Positions 6,282-32,086 of a stretch of DNA of 32,086 bases are shown here, one piece after another. Position 1 is the stretch's first letter. Each line of letters begins with the position of its first letter. A program made the translations under genes and the position numbers. The DNA is taken from positions 1-32,086 of the IMG/VR virus record IMGVR_UViG_3300045988_121667; one strand, given 5' to 3'. This DNA comes from a virus. The notes under the pieces are model-generated. The model saw only the letters and a list, made by a program, of their open reading frames with translations. It searched no databases and had not been told where the DNA came from.

Positions 6282-8732
6282 ATGGAATTAAGGAAAATGA
6301 CCTTTAAGGTTGCGACCGCTACTAGTGCAAAGTCGGTAAGTTGGAAGAACCGTACCTACACATGGGACGACCTTGTTAAGAGGTTCACAAGTGCAAAGGT
6401 GACGGAGGAAACCTACCGCGAGTTCATGGCAGCGAGCAAAGCCGAACAAGGAGCAATCAAGGACGTAGGAGCATTCATGGGAGGAGAGCTGCTTGGAAGC
6501 AGACGAAGCAAGAACAACGTAGGCGAGCGTTCATTATTGGCGCTTGATATCGACTACGGAGAAGCCGATTTCCCGGAACGTTTTTTCGCTGCCATCAATT
6601 GCGCGTGTATCATTCACGGAACACATAAACATAACCCGAAAGCAGGTACGCTACGTTATCGCGTTATCATTCCCTTGTCTGAACCCGTGGATGGTGAACA
6701 ATACGAAGCTATCGCACGAAAGGTTGCCGAGATTACCGGGATAGACCTGTACGACCGCACGACGTTTCAGCCGGAACGCTGCATGTTCTTCCCGTCGGTG
6801 TCCCGCGATGTCGATTATTTTTACACCGACTATTCACAGTTATGTGAAACCCCTCTGGACGTGAACGAATACCTTAACATGTACGAGGATTGGCACGACA
6901 CGACCGAATGGGCCTACCATAAGGACGAGAAGGGCGAAGTACGTACCTTTGTTAAGGAGCAGCAGGACCCTACCTTAAAGGAAGGTACGGTGGGCGACTT
7001 TTGCCGGGCGTACACCATTTCAGAAGTCATCGCGAAATACCTGCCGGACGTTTACGAGCCGACAGACCGACCCGATAGATGGACGTATAGCGGTGGCTCC
7101 ACCTCGGGGGGCATGATTACCTTTGATGATATGTTCGCCTATTCGTTCCATAACAACGACCCTATCCAGGGAAACCACGTGTTTAATGCCTATGACCTGG
7201 TACGTGTACACAAGTTCGGTAAGATGGATAAGGGGCAAGACCGTACGAAGTCGACCGACGCGATGAACGAACTTGTAAACAAGGACGCGAAAGTAGCGGA
7301 GATGCGTGCATCCCGTTTGCTGGCAAAGACTACCGAGGTAATGAACGACTTCGAGGAAACGATAGAACCCGAAGAGGTTCACAATAATCTGCCCGAAGTA
7401 TCATTTGAAAAGGTCATGGCCGAACTCGAGGTTGATAAGAAAGGTAGCTACTTGCCGAGCGCAAAGAACCTGGGTCTCATACTTAAGTATGACCCGAATT
7501 TAAAAGGCCTGATTGCCCGTGACCTATTCAAAGAGCGCCGGGTTGTCACCCGTACCCCGATATGGAGACCGAAAGACAGTAGTACGGACTTTCAAGACGT
7601 AGACTTTGCGGGGGTTAGAAAGCATATCGAGGACGTCTACGGCATCAGTAGTTCGTTTAAGGTGGACGATGCCATATCGTTGGTTGCCGAGATTAATTCT
7701 TTCCACCCGGTGCAGAACTATCTGACTAACTTGGAATGGGACGGTACGGAACGTGTGGATACCGCGTTAATAGATATACTCGGTGCAGAGGATAACATAT
7801 ACACCCGTGAGGCATTTCGTATCATGATGGTAGGAGCTGTCAAGCGTATTTTCCAGAAAGGGTGTAAATTCGATAGTATGCTGGTGCTTCAGTCGGACCA
7901 AGGGGCAGGAAAAAGTACATTCCTTAAGATGCTGGGCAAACAGTGGTTCTCAGATAGCCTTTCAACCATGGACGGCAAGACAGCGTTTGAACAACTGCAA
8001 GGTAACTGGATATTGGAGATTGCCGAGTTATCAGCGATGAGACGTTCAGAGGTCGAGATGGTGAAAAACTTCATCACGAAGACAGAGGACAGCTTCCGAC
8101 CAGCGTACGGGCGTGTCACAAAGAACTTTCCGAGACAGTGCGTTTTCTTCGGTACGACTAACAAGGACGAGTTTTTGAAGGATGCAACCGGAGGGCGTAG
8201 ATTCCTACCCGTACATGTACGTGCCAACGAAAACACCCATCTTATCTTCGAGGCCGATTTCCCGGCATACGTAGACCAGTTATGGGCCGAGGCCGTCAAC
8301 ATGTATTTCCGCGGTGTGCCTACGTTGTTATCAGCCGAAGCTGAGGTGATAGCCGAACAAGGAAGAGAGGAACACTTCGAGACCGACCCACGTACCGAAG
8401 CGGTTGCAAGGTATTGCAATATGTACGTGCCTACCAACTGGGAGAAGATGTTCCCCCTGGAACGTCGTATGTATTACGAGAATTATGATGAAGGCGAGAT
8501 AAAGAAGGAGGAATGCGTGCGGATGGACTTCGTTAGCGCTACGGGCGTGCTGGTTGAGGCCTTAGGTTTCGAGGTAGGGAAAATCAAGGCAAAGGACGCT
8601 TCCGAGATTAGTGATATACTGAACAAGTTACCCGGATGGGAGCGTAGCAGGCAGAGGGTGAAGTCATACGGACAACAAAGGGGATTCAAAAGAATTGTTA
8701 ACGCAGGCGTCGATACCAAGTCTGAAAATTAA
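6282..8732 (+). CDS. Bifunctional primase-polymerase / VirE (D5-like, SF3) helicase
   Basis: 816 aa. The N-terminal AEP-type primase region has LLALDIDYG and RYRVIIPL. The C-terminal VirE/D5-type NTPase has P-loop SDQGAGKSTFLKML and Walker B-like WILEIAEL. Confidence 0.88.
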   Translation: MELRKMTFKVATATSAKSVSWKNRTYTWDDLVKRFTSAKVTEETYREFMAASKAEQGAIKDVGAFMGGELLGSRRSKNNVGERSLLALDIDYGEADFPERFFAAINCACIIHGTHKHNPKAGTLRYRVIIPLSEPVDGEQYEAIARKVAEITGIDLYDRTTFQPERCMFFPSVSRDVDYFYTDYSQLCETPLDVNEYLNMYEDWHDTTEWAYHKDEKGEVRTFVKEQQDPTLKEGTVGDFCRAYTISEVIAKYLPDVYEPTDRPDRWTYSGGSTSGGMITFDDMFAYSFHNNDPIQGNHVFNAYDLVRVHKFGKMDKGQDRTKSTDAMNELVNKDAKVAEMRASRLLAKTTEVMNDFEETIEPEEVHNNLPEVSFEKVMAELEVDKKGSYLPSAKNLGLILKYDPNLKGLIARDLFKERRVVTRTPIWRPKDSSTDFQDVDFAGVRKHIEDVYGISSSFKVDDAISLVAEINSFHPVQNYLTNLEWDGTERVDTALIDILGAEDNIYTREAFRIMMVGAVKRIFQKGCKFDSMLVLQSDQGAGKSTFLKMLGKQWFSDSLSTMDGKTAFEQLQGNWILEIAELSAMRRSEVEMVKNFITKTEDSFRPAYGRVTKNFPRQCVFFGTTNKDEFLKDATGGRRFLPVHVRANENTHLIFEADFPAYVDQLWAEAVNMYFRGVPTLLSAEAEVIAEQGREEHFETDPRTEAVARYCNMYVPTNWEKMFPLERRMYYENYDEGEIKKEECVRMDFVSATGVLVEALGFEVGKIKAKDASEISDILNKLPGWERSRQRVKSYGQQRGFKRIVNAGVDTKSEN

Positions 8733-8757
8733 CGACTTGTTAACAGATTGACTAAAA

Positions 8758-8816
8758 ATAGGGTTTATTCTTAAACGGTGTTAATGAAATATACAACGTA
8801 TCGGAATAAACCCTAT
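8758..8816. promoter_or_regulatory. 13-bp perfect inverted repeat whose right arm overlaps a promoter box
   Basis: ATAGGGTTTATTC (8758-8770) and GAATAAACCCTAT (8804-8816) are exact reverse complements with a 33-nt spacer. The right arm overlaps TAtaTTTG at 8814-8821. Confidence 0.6.
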
Positions 8817-8821
8817 ATTTG
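8814..8821 (+). promoter_or_regulatory. Bacteroidota-type -7 promoter box TAtaTTTG
   Basis: Exact TAnnTTTG match in the 130-bp gap after the primase-helicase gene. ATG 8824 is too close to be downstream of the start site, which favours ATG 8863. Confidence 0.5.
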
Positions 8822-8862
8822 TAATGCCAAAAGGAAATAATAATAATTTAAAGATTAAGATT

Positions 8863-9587: not shown

Positions 9588-10050
9588 ATGGAATTTAAGT
9601 TCATAGATTTATTCGCAGGCGTAGGCGGTTTTCATATCGCAATGAAAAGTGTTGGCGGAAGATGTGTTTTTGCCAGCGAGATAGACAAGTACGCGAGATT
9701 AACGTATGAAGCCAATTATAAAGACGAAGAGCCCTCCCTATTTTTGAAAGGCCGTAACGGAGAATACCCATACTTCAACGACGACATAACGAAGGTTGCC
9801 GCAGAAGACGTTCCAGCGTTCGATGTGTGCTGCGGTGGGTTTCCGTGTCAGCCGTTCTCAGTTGCGGGGCTTAAAAGGGGATTCGAGGACACGAGAGGCA
9901 CATTGTTTCTTAGCATAGCGAATCTAATAAAGGGAAAAAGTAGAAGCAGGCACGCCCCCCAAAGTCTTATTTCTCGAGAATGTTAAGGGTTTGAGGGGGC
10001 ACGACGGAGGAAATAGTAAAACAGCTATTAAGCAAAAAATAATCAGGTAG
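9588..10050 (+). pseudogene. Frameshifted and C-terminally truncated DNA (cytosine-5) methyltransferase remnant
   Basis: Frame A (9588-9986) encodes motif I FIDLFAGVGGF, motif IV GGFPCQPFS and TRGTLF. The +1 frame then continues VEAGTPPKVLFLENVKGLRGHDGG (motif VI ENV) and stops at TAG 10048-10050. The frames join at the A5 run 9935-9939. Motif VIII, the target-recognition domain and motifs IX-X are absent. Confidence 0.8.
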
Positions 10051-10320: not shown

Positions 10321-10479
10321 ATGGTACATATATTAAAAGTAAGGATAGTGATAGATAACGAGCCGCCAAGAACGGTGCACCCTACGGAGCAGGTTTTCGC
10401 TACCGTAGAGGACGCAAGAGAGTTTTTTAAATCAGAGTATAAGACAGAAAAAGTGATAATGTATTATGAGCAACGTTAG
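10321..10479 (+). CDS. Small hypothetical protein (52 aa, below the track cutoff)
   Basis: Read by hand: ATG 10321 ... TAG 10477-10479 (MVHILKVRIVIDNEPPRTVHPTEQVFATVEDAREFFKSEYKTEKVIMYYEQR). It exactly fills the gap between neighbours and overlaps the next start by 14 nt. Confidence 0.4.
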   Translation: MVHILKVRIVIDNEPPRTVHPTEQVFATVEDAREFFKSEYKTEKVIMYYEQR

Positions 10480-11182
10480 AGATTACAATGTAGGAAAGTC
10501 CGATTATAGCAGGCACGTAATACAACCCTGGGATATATGGCGTGAATATGACTTGAACCCCTGGGATGCGGACATAGTCAAGCGCGTATTGCGTACCAAA
10601 GAGGGTGAAGATAGAAAGCTGGACTACGAGAAGATTATCCATGTATGCCAGGAGCGTATCAGACAGTTAGCGGTCGAACGGGCTGATGCCATGGAGGAGA
10701 GCGACGAGCCCGATTATAAGACAGTTATCTGCCCTTCCGAAAAGGACAAGCCCGAATTTCGGTACGGCTGTGGCACAGAGTTTGACGGAGTCTATAGGGT
10801 GTATAGCGTTTTTCAGTCCGAGGGCAGTCCATATGCGTACCTTGGGCATGACGGCCTATGCCACGTGTATTTGGACCTCGGTTCGTCTCGAAAGTGGGAC
10901 TATTTTGAATATGATTGGATGCCGGGAAGAACCTTTGGTCTACATGGCATACCATTAGACAAGGAAGACCACGCATCGTCAATGGAAATCGGTAAGCACG
11001 GCTTAACGTACGGGAGGCACGCCTATATAATGACTCATGGCAGCCTATACCGTTACATGGACGTCACACCGAAAGGACACGTGTATGCGAGGTTTGAGGA
11101 CAACGGGAAATTCACCAAGGTAGTGACAGAGCATAAACTATTTAACGAAGCAATTCAATATGTCAAGGGAAATAATAAGTGA
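10466..11182 (+). CDS. DUF3310-domain protein with a long uncharacterised C-terminal extension
   Basis: The N-terminal ~65 aa (NVGKSDYSRHVIQPWDIWREYDLNPWDADIVKRVLRTKEG...DYEKIIHVCQERI) follow the DUF3310 pattern. The remaining ~170 aa are unrecognised. Confidence 0.65.
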   Translation: MSNVRDYNVGKSDYSRHVIQPWDIWREYDLNPWDADIVKRVLRTKEGEDRKLDYEKIIHVCQERIRQLAVERADAMEESDEPDYKTVICPSEKDKPEFRYGCGTEFDGVYRVYSVFQSEGSPYAYLGHDGLCHVYLDLGSSRKWDYFEYDWMPGRTFGLHGIPLDKEDHASSMEIGKHGLTYGRHAYIMTHGSLYRYMDVTPKGHVYARFEDNGKFTKVVTEHKLFNEAIQYVKGNNK

Positions 11183-11501
11183 AAAGGACTTGGAGCGCAC
11201 ATTCAGTGAGCAACTGAACAGGACAAAAAAAGTGTGGGTGATAAAGCTATTATCCACCTTTGTAAAGGGTTTGCCCGATAGAATGATTCTTTGCCAGGGT
11301 GGCTACGTAGGTTTTGCCGAGATAAAGACCACCGGGAAGAAGCCTACAAAGATACAAACGTATATCCACGGGAAGCTAAGGGCGCTCGGCTTCACAGTAT
11401 TCGTCATAGACGATTTGGAAAGCCGGGACATCGCGATAACCTTCTTCCTAAATAAGGTTAAGGAAATAACCAGGGTATCGCAAAGACCATTATCTTTGTG
11501 A
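11160..11501 (+). CDS. VRR-NUC domain nuclease
   Basis: Core GLPDRMILCQGGYVGFAEIKTTGKKPTKIQ...LGFTVFVID matches the VRR-NUC PD...(D/E)xK layout. Size (113 aa) and position next to the SNF2 helicase are typical. Confidence 0.8.
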   Translation: MSREIISEKDLERTFSEQLNRTKKVWVIKLLSTFVKGLPDRMILCQGGYVGFAEIKTTGKKPTKIQTYIHGKLRALGFTVFVIDDLESRDIAITFFLNKVKEITRVSQRPLSL

Positions 11502-11524
11502 TATCGGATTAAAAACAGGAAATC

Positions 11525-14173: not shown

Positions 14174-14217
14174 TAGTACCCCTTACGAATAGCATATACC
14201 TTTAAAAAATGATAGCA

Positions 14218-14272
14218 AAAGGGCGGTTTCGGCTTACAAATAGTCAGAAATCGCCCTTTGTCATTATTTTTT
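14218..14272 (+). terminator. Rho-independent terminator closing the early module
   Basis: AAAGGGCGGTTTC (14218-14230) pairs with GAAATCGCCCTTT (14247-14259), giving 13 bp with one G-U pair and a 16-nt loop. T6 run at 14267-14272. Confidence 0.6.
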
Positions 14273-14360
14273 ATGAAAGCCTAAATCTTAAAAAGTGTTT
14301 AGATTGTTAACTGAAAAATGCTTACCAAAATGCGCACCGTGCTAACGTGTTGATAATCAA

Positions 14361-14740
14361 ATGTGGCAAGTAAAAAATATAGGCGTGGCACAGTCCTTGT
14401 CTCAATTAACTTGCTGATTCACAATATCGTTAACAGTCACTGTGCCAGGAAAAATATAGGGTGGCACAGCAAGTGGCACAGATAACTCACTGACCTATAT
14501 ATAGTTATCTATACTGTGCCACTAAATAGTATAAAATAGGTATAACACTTTATTTGGAAAAATATATGGTAATTGCAATGTAGAGATAGCAGTAATATGT
14601 ACTATTTATAAAACAAGTGTTAGAAAAATGCGTTTTGGCCGGCACAGTGGCACAATCGCTCTAACGGTCTGATACATAGCGCGTTATCTGTGCCACTTGG
14701 ACTGTGCCACCAGAAGCGTGTCTGGCACAGTAGGCAAAAA
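14361..14740. repeat. NCR-A iteron array: 8 exact TGGCACAG sites plus variants around an AT-rich palindromic core
   Basis: Exact sites at 14385-93(+), 14440-48(-), 14461-69(+), 14473-81(+), 14514-22(-), 14688-96(-), 14702-10(-) and 14722-30(+). Variants at 14639-47 and 14647-55. Inner inverted repeat TAACACTT (14543-50) / AAGTGTTA (14615-22). No ORF of 60 aa or more on either strand. Confidence 0.9.
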
Positions 14741-14849
14741 CGCTTGTAACTCCCTGGAGGACAGTGCGTTATCCGTGACAACCCCTACTTTGTAAAAGAT
14801 TTTTGATTTTCACGACTGATTGCGGGTTGGTTTGTGGCAGGAAGTTATG

Positions 14850-14857
14850 TACTTTTG
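14850..14857 (+). promoter_or_regulatory. Bacteroidota-type -7 promoter box TActTTTG (late/packaging operon)
   Basis: Exact TAnnTTTG match at the 3' edge of NCR-A, 22 nt upstream of ATG 14879. It lies inside the GTG-started track ORF (14834), which argues against that start. Confidence 0.5.
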
Positions 14858-14878
14858 CCCCACACCCTTAAGGGAATA

Positions 14879-15562
14879 ATGGACCGCGCGCATGGACAAT
14901 ATCCATTGGCCACGCACGCATTAAACCGAATAACAATCATGGCAGGAAGAACAAAGAAAGAAGCCGTCCCCGATACGAAAAAGGAAATCAAGAAGGGCCA
15001 GGCGACCGGGAAGCCCCCGAAGGCAAAGGATGAAATCAAGGCCTGCACACAACTTTATGAGGTTGTGCAGACACGAGGCGTGAACGGTGCGACGCTTAAC
15101 AGCATCGACGAGTGTATTAACTATGTGGCCGAGTACATGGACTTCTGTGAGAAGAACCCGTTCATCTCATACGAGATACTGAAAGGTGGCGCATCAGCCG
15201 GGCAGAAAGTCCCGGTAGAGAAGAAACGCGCGCCCTCCGTCGGCGGTTTCTGCCTTTTCATAGGCTGGTCCATAAAGGACTTCAATAAGAACATGGGGAA
15301 GCTGGAGAAGGCCTCCGAGACGAACCCCGATGCCGGGAACCTTCTACTCGGTTACACCCTGATAAAGGAGCTCATAACGACCGAGATGGACGAAGCGGCT
15401 CTTGCCGGGGTGGTGGATGCCAACTACATGGCGAAACTACGAGGGTTGCGAGACCTTAAGGACATTACGAGCAATGGCAAGGAGGCAGGCACGAAGGCCA
15501 TGCAGGTCAATGTGCTTTCCGAGGACGCCGTCAAGAACCTACAGAAGTTAGGGGGTATCTGA
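14879..15562 (+). CDS. terS: Terminase small subunit
   Basis: Sits immediately upstream of TerL and overlaps it (TGATG). Basic N-terminus, then FCEKNPF...PSVGGFCLFIGWSIKDFNKN, which resembles the TerS HTH region. The start is uncertain (ATG 14879 or ATG 14939, MAGRTKKE...). Confidence 0.7.
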   Translation: MDRAHGQYPLATHALNRITIMAGRTKKEAVPDTKKEIKKGQATGKPPKAKDEIKACTQLYEVVQTRGVNGATLNSIDECINYVAEYMDFCEKNPFISYEILKGGASAGQKVPVEKKRAPSVGGFCLFIGWSIKDFNKNMGKLEKASETNPDAGNLLLGYTLIKELITTEMDEAALAGVVDANYMAKLRGLRDLKDITSNGKEAGTKAMQVNVLSEDAVKNLQKLGGI

Positions 15563-31025: not shown

Positions 31026-31037
31026 GACACGATTTAA

Positions 31038-31066
31038 GGGTGCATTCTTCGGAATGTGCCCTTTTT
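31038..31066 (+). terminator. Rho-independent terminator closing the late module
   Basis: GGGTGCATTC (31038-47) pairs with GAATGTGCCC (31052-61), giving 10 bp including two G-U pairs. TTCG tetraloop. T5 at 31062-66. Confidence 0.75.
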
Positions 31067-31076
31067 GCGTCTCAAA

Positions 31077-31431
31077 CTGTGCCACTGTGCCAGGCACGGT
31101 TTTTAGGTGGCACAGTCTTTGTCTCACTTAACTTGCTGTATTATAGTTACTTATAGAGGTGTGCCAGGTGAGACAGTGAAAATGGCATAACACTTTATTT
31201 TGGCGATTATTGAAATTTACCCCCTCTACTAAATATTCGTAGTATAGTAGTATTTTATATATTCCAAATAAAGTTATAAGAAAACCTCAGCCTCACCTGG
31301 CACAGTTGGCCTTTTTCCGTTGTAACGGCTTGATTTGTAGCGCATTAAGTGAGACAACGCATTTTCGAGAGGTGGCACAGTCCGAAATCGCATTTTTTAA
31401 ACGGTTGGTTTTCAACGTTTTAAGTGAGACA
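31077..31431. repeat. NCR-B iteron array: 5 exact TGGCACAG sites plus a variant, 3 TTAAGTGAGACA sites, and nested inverted repeats around an AT-rich core
   Basis: TGGCACAG sites at 31077-85(-), 31085-93(-), 31107-15(+), 31297-305(+) and 31372-80(+). Variant at 31159-67. TTAAGTGAGACA at 31120-31(-), 31345-56(+) and 31420-31(+). Inverted repeat GTGCCAGGTGAG (31161-72) / CTCACCTGGCAC (31292-303). Inner inverted repeat ACTTTATTTTGG (31192-203) / CCAAATAAAGT (31264-74). Confidence 0.9.
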
Positions 31432-31488
31432 GAGCACTTTTATTCTTAAATGATGTTAACAGAATATACGGTCTATCGATAAAAGCCG

Positions 31489-31496
31489 TATATTTG
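31489..31496 (+). promoter_or_regulatory. Bacteroidota-type -7 promoter box TAtaTTTG (early operon)
   Basis: Exact TAnnTTTG match at the 3' edge of NCR-B, about 90 nt upstream of the first early ORF. Confidence 0.5.
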
Positions 31497-31586
31497 TAAC
31501 GTTGAAAGGGAGAAACCGAGGTTTACTCACCTAACGGAAGGTCACCGAGACATTAAAACGGAAATAAACGATTAAAAGATAGAATT

Positions 31587-31805
31587 GTGAAAGCGATTAA
31601 CCGTATTCTTAGAGAAACCATTAAAGAAGGTAAGTTCGAGATGAAAAGCCATATCCTTGTATTCTTGGACGATAACGGTACGGAGCAGAGTGCGCCCTTT
31701 ACAGAGGTACGTTTCGATGGGCATCTTGACAGCTACCAGTTCGAAGGAGTAGCCTATATATTCATGCAGCCAATGTTAGAAGCGATATATAATAAAAAAC
31801 GTTAA
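31587..31805 (+). CDS. Hypothetical protein, first early gene (72 aa from GTG 31587; 54 aa from ATG 31641)
   Basis: ORF in the track. It is the first ORF after NCR-B. No motif recognised and the start is uncertain. Confidence 0.45.
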   Translation: MKAINRILRETIKEGKFEMKSHILVFLDDNGTEQSAPFTEVRFDGHLDSYQFEGVAYIFMQPMLEAIYNKKR

Positions 31806-31867
31806 CGAATGAACCAACGTATTAGTAAAAGCGTTATATTCGCATCAACAAATTAAAAGGTGGAATC

Positions 31868-32086
31868 ATGAAAGGGAAAGGGAAAGAGAAAGAGAAAGAG
31901 TTCATCATTGCGGAGGTGAAAAAGCATTTATCCGCATCAGTTAAAAGGAGTAAGTACGAAGTTATCGAGGCATCAAAGAACATGCCTACCTTTGAAGGGT
32001 TCATCCTGCCTTACTACGTCTCCACGATGGAGGGCGCCAGATACCCGGTAGACGTTGAACACATGTACATCTACTGCGACGAGTAC
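31868..32086 (+). CDS. Hypothetical protein, 5' part of the junction-spanning gene (continues at 100-183 after collapsing the overlap)
   Basis: ATG 31868 is open to the window end with exactly 73 codons. The sequence from 31988 onward duplicates bases 1-99. The N-terminus KGKGKEKEKE is encoded by a 30-nt polypurine microsatellite. Confidence 0.7.
   Translation, partial: MKGKGKEKEKEFIIAEVKKHLSASVKRSKYEVIEASKNMPTFEGFILPYYVSTMEGARYPVDVEHMYIYCDEY
31988..32086. repeat. Terminal direct repeat, right copy (identical to 1-99)
   Basis: Read directly; see the left copy. Confidence 0.95.

Follow-up and report, generated by a model that had tools for sequence, protein, structure and literature searches.

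Bacillus phage SPP1 carries two replication origins, oriL and oriR, each consisting of initiator-binding repeats beside an AT-rich stretch, and a separate origin-binding protein, the initiator G38P, brings in a loader and a DnaB-type helicase. For P4, Ziegelin and Lanka are said to have reported in 1995 two clusters of one octamer (TGTTCACC), kilobases apart at ori and crr and both bound by the alpha protein. Of the two, crr has a helper role and lies 4.5 kb away from ori; the primase of alpha is of the DnaG type. The alpha protein is organised as a primase, an SF3 helicase and a C-terminal winged helix (PMC2777425). The Rep proteins of the SaPIs are self-loading initiator-helicases, whose C-terminal winged helix binds iterons of 5-6 nucleotides placed on either side of an AT-rich region and running in opposite directions (PMC9371898). 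Here, we analyse a viral DNA of 32,086 nucleotides (IMG/VR record IMGVR_UViG_3300045988_121667; "the window" denotes this whole stretch) and, within it, a non-coding region upstream of the small terminase gene terS (NCR-A, 14273-14830) and a second non-coding region (NCR-B, 31070-31400). On the comparisons described below, NCR-A is interpreted as an iteron-type replication origin and NCR-B as a second, paralogous copy of it, a reading to which we assign a probability of roughly 0.72.

The repeat on which this interpretation is built, TGGCACAG, occurs in 14 exact copies in the window, compared to an expectation of 0.55 ± 0.77 (maximum 3) in dinucleotide-preserving shuffles. All but one of these copies (13 of 14) fall in the two large non-coding regions, eight of them in NCR-A and five in NCR-B. 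The eight NCR-A copies span 14386-14730 and are found in both orientations around an AT-rich core, which is proposed to be the unwinding region and which has five sites on its left and five to six on its right. The core-proximal site of the left array is on the minus strand, and the core-proximal sites of the right array lie on the opposite, plus strand. Further symmetry is provided by an inverted pair (14473-87 / 14503-22) and by a bracket of TAACACTT / AAGTGTTA around the core. The preliminary description of this region had listed the sites, their variants and the inverted repeats, and all of its coordinates agree with the sequence. It had also put the core at about 75% A+T and had found no open reading frame (ORF) of 60 amino acids or more: 14523-14635 measures 77% A+T, against 52% genome-wide, and the longest ORF wholly within 14273-14833 has 53 amino acids. 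A 1-nucleotide indel among close relatives falls inside the span of a 40-amino-acid ORF of NCR-A, and the core holds no TAnnTTTG promoter box on either strand.

Two further observations concern these elements. The AT-rich core contains, at 14573-14595, a near-palindrome ATTGCAATGTAGAGATAGCAAT that is kept upstream of terS across groups with different iterons (L077, L052, L068) and that forms an 8-bp stem with a 6-nucleotide loop in L052; it may be a site for a host factor. The only exact TGGCACAG outside both non-coding regions, at 10768-10778, lies within the ORF at 10466-11182 and inside a near-palindrome, CTGTGGCACAG.

NCR-B was missed in the first reading. It is the only other large non-coding region, separates the end of the late operon from the first early promoter, and holds five exact TGGCACAG sites and one site with a single mismatch at 31077-31380. 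The repeats are therefore not confined to the stretch upstream of terS, and with this cluster the picture shifts from a single origin to a duplicated origin module. NCR-A and NCR-B are partly paralogous (14385-14416 and 31107-31138 are 94% identical, and another 124 bp are 69% identical) and follow a common plan, in which a terminator is followed by repeats, an AT-rich core with ATAACACTTTATTT(T)GG, repeats again, and the promoter of the next operon. The left array of NCR-B stands directly 3' of the terminator-like hairpin and T-run (~31030-31067) that end the late operon, and in both regions the sites nearest to the core are in the (-) orientation on the left and in the (+) orientation on the right. 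The two clusters are 16.6 kb apart on a 32-kb circle.

NCR-B additionally contains all four copies of GTGAGACA (0.74 expected), at 31120-31127 on the minus strand and at 31168-31175, 31349-31356 and 31424-31431 on the plus strand. These are partly inside a 46-nucleotide direct repeat (31320-31365 / 31395-31440) and differ at two positions from the iteron GTGGCACA; NCR-A holds a related TTGAGACA on the minus strand at 14398-14405. These copies might serve as weak iterons or be recognised by a different factor.

When 50,697 phage records were searched with NCR-A at the DNA level, no match was obtained, and relatives were reached through proteins for this reason. Eleven genomes (L001-L011), with TerS at least 92% identical, were taken as close relatives. 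Most of the NCR-A site positions are kept in these eleven genomes, the opposite of the lack of positional conservation which the preliminary description had named as an argument against its own proposal. Pairwise identity across the central part of NCR-A (14439-14678) is 95-98% in this group, compared to 80-93% in the flanking genes, which indicates purifying selection and a stronger constraint on NCR-A than on coding sequence; the AT-rich core itself (14523-14638) is nearly invariant. Individual sites vary in either direction: the site at 14773-80 is degenerate in the window and intact in several close relatives, and the one at 14385-93 is exact in the window and reads GTGTCACAG in most of the others. 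The one-off variants proposed earlier were placed at the right coordinates, and the pair at 14639-55 is exact in most close relatives; the third of them, GTGGCAGG at 14834-41, is flanked by the -33 and -7 boxes of the late promoter, differs freely from one relative to another and is unlikely to be an iteron site.

In relatives with a TerS of about 75% identity, the layout upstream of terS is the same and the repeat differs by genome. The shared order begins with a pair of sites and an inverted pair, continues with an AT-rich stretch (tattataatatattatat) and a tandem pair to which taaaaag is appended, and then reaches the conserved core and further sites. De novo calling of 6-mer and 7-mer motifs was noisy, being drawn to a GTTAACA promoter cluster, tandem arrays and AAGCCC terminators, and repeat calling worked once it was anchored on the conserved TAATATATTAT core. 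The variants observed are TGCACAG, TTACACAG, (G/A)ACACAG, TGACCAG, GGAACAC, TGTAACA and TGTCACA, with the variant specific to a genome occupying the same NCR-A positions. In loci anchored on the primase-helicase gene and spanning both non-coding regions, each genome has its own variant in both of them, and ten of the 13 loci that cover both regions possess at least three sites in each. The paralogous block is 214-229 bp long in L092 and L111, at 75-80% identity, and the more distant Phocaeicola phage BV57P2 shares the two-region plan, its AT-rich core being surrounded by GGAACAG / GTCGGAACA repeats. The repeats thus appear to be swapped as a unit with the layout kept, which points to a trans-acting specificity factor encoded by each genome.

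Repeat swaps may also be viewed as compensatory changes within the helices of a structured non-coding RNA, an explanation that the preliminary description had named as one that would displace its own. The predicted fold of the region is far more stable than that of shuffled sequences (z = -7.3), and paired arms do change together among relatives. However, the opposite strand is equally strong (z = -7.4), a result to be anticipated for inverted DNA repeats and not for a strand-specific RNA, and tandem direct copies, which are unable to pair mutually, are swapped likewise. Furthermore, NCR-A matches no Rfam family at gathering score (only two chance-level matches were obtained at E ≤ 1) and contains no tRNA gene, neither strand of the region has an internal Bacteroidota -7 box, and the region is immediately preceded by a terminator. 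A structured RNA is, in our view, a most improbable explanation. The case also invites caution, as swapped inverted repeats can mimic RNA covariation.

The protein that would read these repeats was approached through co-variation in 41 closely related genomes differing in repeat type, in which 4726 variable amino-acid columns, from ORF families with at least 20 sequences, were scored by adjusted mutual information with repeat type. The top four of the 4726 columns all fall in alignment columns 800-808 of a VapE-type primase-helicase (0.83, 0.80, 0.72 and 0.44), between its conserved GW and G.GR.RG(F/Y)ERIVNE motifs; the best column outside this stretch, in a 52-amino-acid ORF, reached 0.41. 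Column 805 is the only column of any family with three type-specific residues, the labels being derived from DNA alone. No gene family is restricted to one repeat type, and whole-protein identity does not separate the types, within-type and between-type values being similar for every family. The comparison suggests that the specificity of the putative initiator matches the iterons of its own genome.

TerS identity is 95-96% whether or not the genomes compared share a repeat type, and TerS has no type-associated column, with none among the 25 best, and the sequence evidence indicates that the terS product is not the recognition partner of the repeats. This bears on the idea, raised as a terminase recognition region in the preliminary description, that NCR-A is the packaging recognition region (pac) and its repeats are TerS binding sites beside terS, much as cosB lies by Nu1 in lambda. 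NCR-A adjoins terS, and the related phage EMB2 is reported to be a headful packager with a circularly permuted genome, its pac position not being given (PMC9584325); hence, a pac site exists somewhere, and it may be near NCR-A. As a role for the repeats themselves, however, TerS binding is very unlikely: the same sites form a second cluster 16.6 kb off, far from terS, the co-varying residues belong to the primase-helicase, and the genomes L058-L061 and L063-L067 have terS directly after a gene, without such a region.

The late-operon operator array that had also been suggested can be widened to a transcriptional control array, in which a phage or host regulator upstream of the late (NCR-A) and early (NCR-B) promoters would time the early-to-late switch, possibly as a second job of the primase-helicase. 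Each cluster indeed has a terminator on one side and the next operon's promoter on the other, with the late promoter approximately 120 bp downstream of the last exact site. Yet no exact site overlaps the -33 and -7 boxes, those of NCR-A being ~120-460 bp upstream of the late -7 box and those of NCR-B ~110-410 bp upstream of the -7 box of the early promoter, and opposed sites flanking an AT-rich core correspond to origin geometry and not to operator geometry. The early ORFs yielded no helix-turn-helix or other regulator family, no regulator gene co-varies and no other protein column tracks repeat type. We therefore consider transcriptional control an unlikely function of the arrays.

The primase-helicase, the proposed initiator under the origin interpretation, matches the VapE-like family of Pfam at 3.7e-80 and PHROG 256, and its residues 394-736 match SaPI1 Rep (PDB 7pds) with an E-value of 9.2e-76 in phmmer. 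Pfam and PDB sequence searches with the C-terminal 149 amino acids produced no match. A confident AlphaFold2 model based on 119 homologues has a mean predicted local distance difference test (pLDDT) score of 89.4; the full-length alignment was needed for this, as single-sequence prediction of the C-terminal 189 amino acids gave a pLDDT of 36 and a homologue search with the same fragment gave seven fragments. The modelled C-terminus consists of strands 745-752, helices 753-760 and 770-782, and a beta-hairpin (786-793 / 797-804), and is predicted to be a winged-helix fold with the hypervariable residues in its beta-hairpin wing. The helicase and C-terminal part of the model (~residues 360-816) superposes on the whole of SaPI1 Rep: Foldseek comparison with Rep1 chains (448-457 residues) aligned 443-456 columns, with a target-normalised template-modelling (TM) score of 0.83-0.87 and 33% identity. 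As the alignment covers the full Rep1 chain, the C-terminal domain of Rep1 is included. The wing peptides and the repeats that accompany them are listed in Table 1; the isolated phage EMB1 obeys this peptide-repeat rule, and BX788P2 presents a further wing variant, ARQIA, together with mixed T(G/A)CACAG sites.

From these data we infer that the primase-helicase would bind, melt and initiate at the arrays. The (G/C)TGGCACAG repeats of 8-9 bp would be binding sites for its C-terminal winged-helix domain, and the protein, as a homologue of the self-loading SaPI Rep initiator-helicases, would assemble as hexamers on the oppositely oriented repeats at both sides of the AT-rich core. These hexamers would melt the core and then load themselves, and the primase-helicase would prime synthesis for the family-A DNA polymerase of the phage. 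Both copies may fire, or one of them may act as an enhancer, like the crr of P4. The initial suggestion of an origin in which an easily melted AT-rich core is surrounded by iterons of both orientations is thereby favoured, with the swapping of repeats tracking the wing residues.

Several observations weigh against this interpretation. The clusters are not beside the gene of the presumed initiator, being 5.5 kb downstream of it and, round the circle, ~7.2 kb upstream, and the region directly after that gene (8733-8823) is a promoter cassette without repeats. Mixed sites occur in some genomes (L094, L113, L123 and BX788P2). The above-mentioned L058-L061 and L063-L067, with a TerS of ~72% identity, are devoid of NCR-A, terS following the preceding gene and a promoter of ~100 nucleotides; they were not retrieved by the primase-helicase query and may use a different replication module. 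The extreme conservation of the core exceeds the need of a mere unwinding element, and it is likely that some additional factor or function resides there. GC skew increases monotonically and provides no signal of an origin, a measure that is uninformative here because all genes share one strand. As regards the co-variation screen, most structural genes (window ~16.7-28.3 kb) were left out, the genomes are related and the events are not fully independent, and one of the five type labels behind the mutual-information ranking was refined after the sequences had been seen.

Table 1. Features of the two non-coding regions, their neighbours and the proposed initiator, with the wing peptides and their repeats.
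Feature	Position	Strand	Remarks
Left array of NCR-A, putative iterons (G/C)TGGCACAG	14385..14522		14385-93 (+), 14440-48 (-), 14461-69 (+), 14473-81 (+), 14514-22 (-)
AT-rich core of NCR-A	14523..14638		contains ATAACACTTTATTTGG and near-palindrome TTGCAATGTAGAGATAGCAG
Right array of NCR-A, putative iterons	14639..14780		14639-47 (+, 1 mismatch), 14647-55 (+, 1 mismatch), 14688-96 (-), 14702-10 (-), 14722-30 (+), 14773-80 (-)
Left array of NCR-B, putative iterons	31077..31166		31077-84 (-), 31085-92 (-), 31108-15 (+), 31159-66 (-, 1 mismatch)
AT-rich core of NCR-B	31170..31295		70% A+T; has ATAACACTTTATTTTGG, as NCR-A does
Right putative iterons of NCR-B	31298..31380	+	31298-305 (+), 31373-80 (+); then GTGAGACA repeats and early promoter cassette 31439-31509
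Primase-helicase, proposed initiator	6282..8732	+	N-terminal primase part, VapE/SF3 ATPase, C-terminal winged-helix domain (predicted)
Predicted beta-hairpin wing, residues 786-804	8637..8693	+	holds the hypervariable co-varying stretch; GWERSRQRVKSYGQQRGFKR in the window
Terminator-like hairpin and T-run	14218..14272	+	ends the early/replication operon; left edge of NCR-A; from sequence
Late (terS operon) promoter, Bacteroidota type	14831..14857	+	TTTG at -33, TACTTTTG at -7; separate from the iteron array
terS, small terminase subunit	14939..15562	+	right neighbour of NCR-A; PHROG 606 at 5.8e-10, weak Pfam GP3_package match
Wing peptide ANGKT			repeat TGCACAG
Wing peptide ADAKS			repeat TTACACAG
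Wing peptide AGR(R/K)A			repeat TGACCAG
Wing peptide ANA(K/R)P			repeat (G/A)ACACAG
Wing peptide SRQRVKS (window group)			repeat TGGCACAG

Bases 1-99 of the window recur identically at 31988-32086, and the window is therefore a complete circular or circularly permuted genome, the circularly closed phage genome measuring ~31,987 bp. All genes are carried on the plus strand. The early/replication module extends from 31587 round the circle to 14173 and encodes a DUF2800 exonuclease, a gp2.5-like single-strand binding protein, a second exonuclease, the family-A DNA polymerase, the VapE-type primase-helicase (6282-8732), a methylase fragment and an SNF2 helicase; the late module begins with terS at 14939. 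The nearest cultured relatives are siphophages of Bacteroides uniformis and B. xylanisolvens (EMB1/EMB2, BU241P1 and BX788P2), whose primase-helicases are ~75% identical to that of the window, with ~60% identity in Phocaeicola phages. The promoters of the window conform to the Bacteroidota type and have TAnnTTTG as their -7 box. The late promoter is the sole such box in NCR-A, being unchanged in close relatives and recognisable in distant ones, and the stretch at 14199-14258, at the terminator-like hairpin, has 99% pairwise identity among close relatives.

The repeats also bear a likeness to sigma-54 promoters (TGGCAC-N5-TTGC), TGGCAC being the -24 element. This candidate was rejected: most sites are without a -12 element, only those at 14386 and 31108 read TGGCAC-N5-TTGT, and the GG is lost both in close relatives, which carry GTGTCACAG at 14386, and in other relatives, whose repeats lack it. 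The resemblance is coincidental.

A number of other repeated elements were observed. A cassette of ~70 nucleotides is present in five copies (1929-2002, 8764-8837, 11441-11514, 31439-31509 and 31792-31858), each just 5' of a gene and composed of GTTAAC..AACC.. followed by a TAnnTTTG -7 box or a near match; these are probably a family of early/middle promoters with a common upstream element. In relatives, a GTTAACA cluster is found directly after the primase-helicase gene. Several relatives possess tandem arrays of a 17-nucleotide unit (AATACCGGGATAG.. or TAGTCC(G/A)AC(TAC)..) between the late promoter and terS, with 17 copies in L041 and L125, about six in L031, L051 and L132, and none in the window; situated in the terS leader, these arrays may represent a pac/TerS element or a feature of a leader RNA. 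Within the ORF at 207-764, an 18-nucleotide tandem repeat of about five copies (462-587) encodes PAKVEE repeats, and the protein of this ORF has no family match. For the ORF at 9588-9986, similarity to a C-5 cytosine DNA methylase is confined to the first third of the profile (positions 1-101 of 324), and this gene is truncated or split.

An iteron origin is a known kind of element, newly recognised here in gut Bacteroides phages, and what sets the present case apart is the duplicated module and the matched series of repeats and wings. In the literature searched, no replication origin is described for common human-gut Bacteroides phages, and in the records of the cultured relatives EMB1, BX788P2 and BV57P2 both non-coding regions are unannotated. 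The analysis thus offers a precise pair of origin and initiator that is open to testing, and a natural series of repeat and wing variants that approximates a recognition code for a Rep-type winged helix, useful for studies of initiator specificity. It may also aid the building of Bacteroides phage-derived replicons and help to clarify how related phages keep clear of one another's replication machinery or make use of it. A broader scenario can be drawn, although we regard it as doubtful in its entirety: siphophages of gut Bacteroides and Phocaeicola would carry two full origin modules, at the early/late operon boundaries and approximately opposite on the circle, with the copies matched by concerted evolution and retargeted together with the wing residues, creating replication-specificity groups among co-circulating phages, and the copy upstream of terS would couple the onset of replication to late transcription or packaging.

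With regard to the systems outlined at the outset, two origins on one phage genome are reminiscent of SPP1, although G38P is unrelated to the primase-helicase of this phage. P4 is closer in two respects, namely the order of primase, SF3 helicase and winged helix in alpha, which is predicted for the phage protein as well, and the two separated clusters of one repeat per replicon, observed here and, with their own repeat, in the relatives. It differs in that no sequence match to the DnaG-type primase of alpha was seen in the phage protein, and in that crr does not amount, as NCR-B does, to a complete second origin-like module that includes an AT-rich core. The strongest likeness is to the SaPIs, which have a homologous initiator (phmmer E-value of 9.2e-76 to SaPI1 Rep; Foldseek TM score of 0.83-0.87, including the C-terminal winged helix), the fusion of primase and helicase seen in PriRep5 of SaPI5, and an AT-rich region flanked by short, oppositely directed repeats (PMC9371898). 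In contrast to the SaPIs, the repeats of this phage are 8-9 nucleotides long instead of 5-6, and the proposed origin is not directly downstream of the rep gene, where a SaPI-type origin is located. Moreover, each genome has two paralogous copies, placed where the early and late operons meet, and the replicon is a complete Bacteroides siphophage and not a satellite island.

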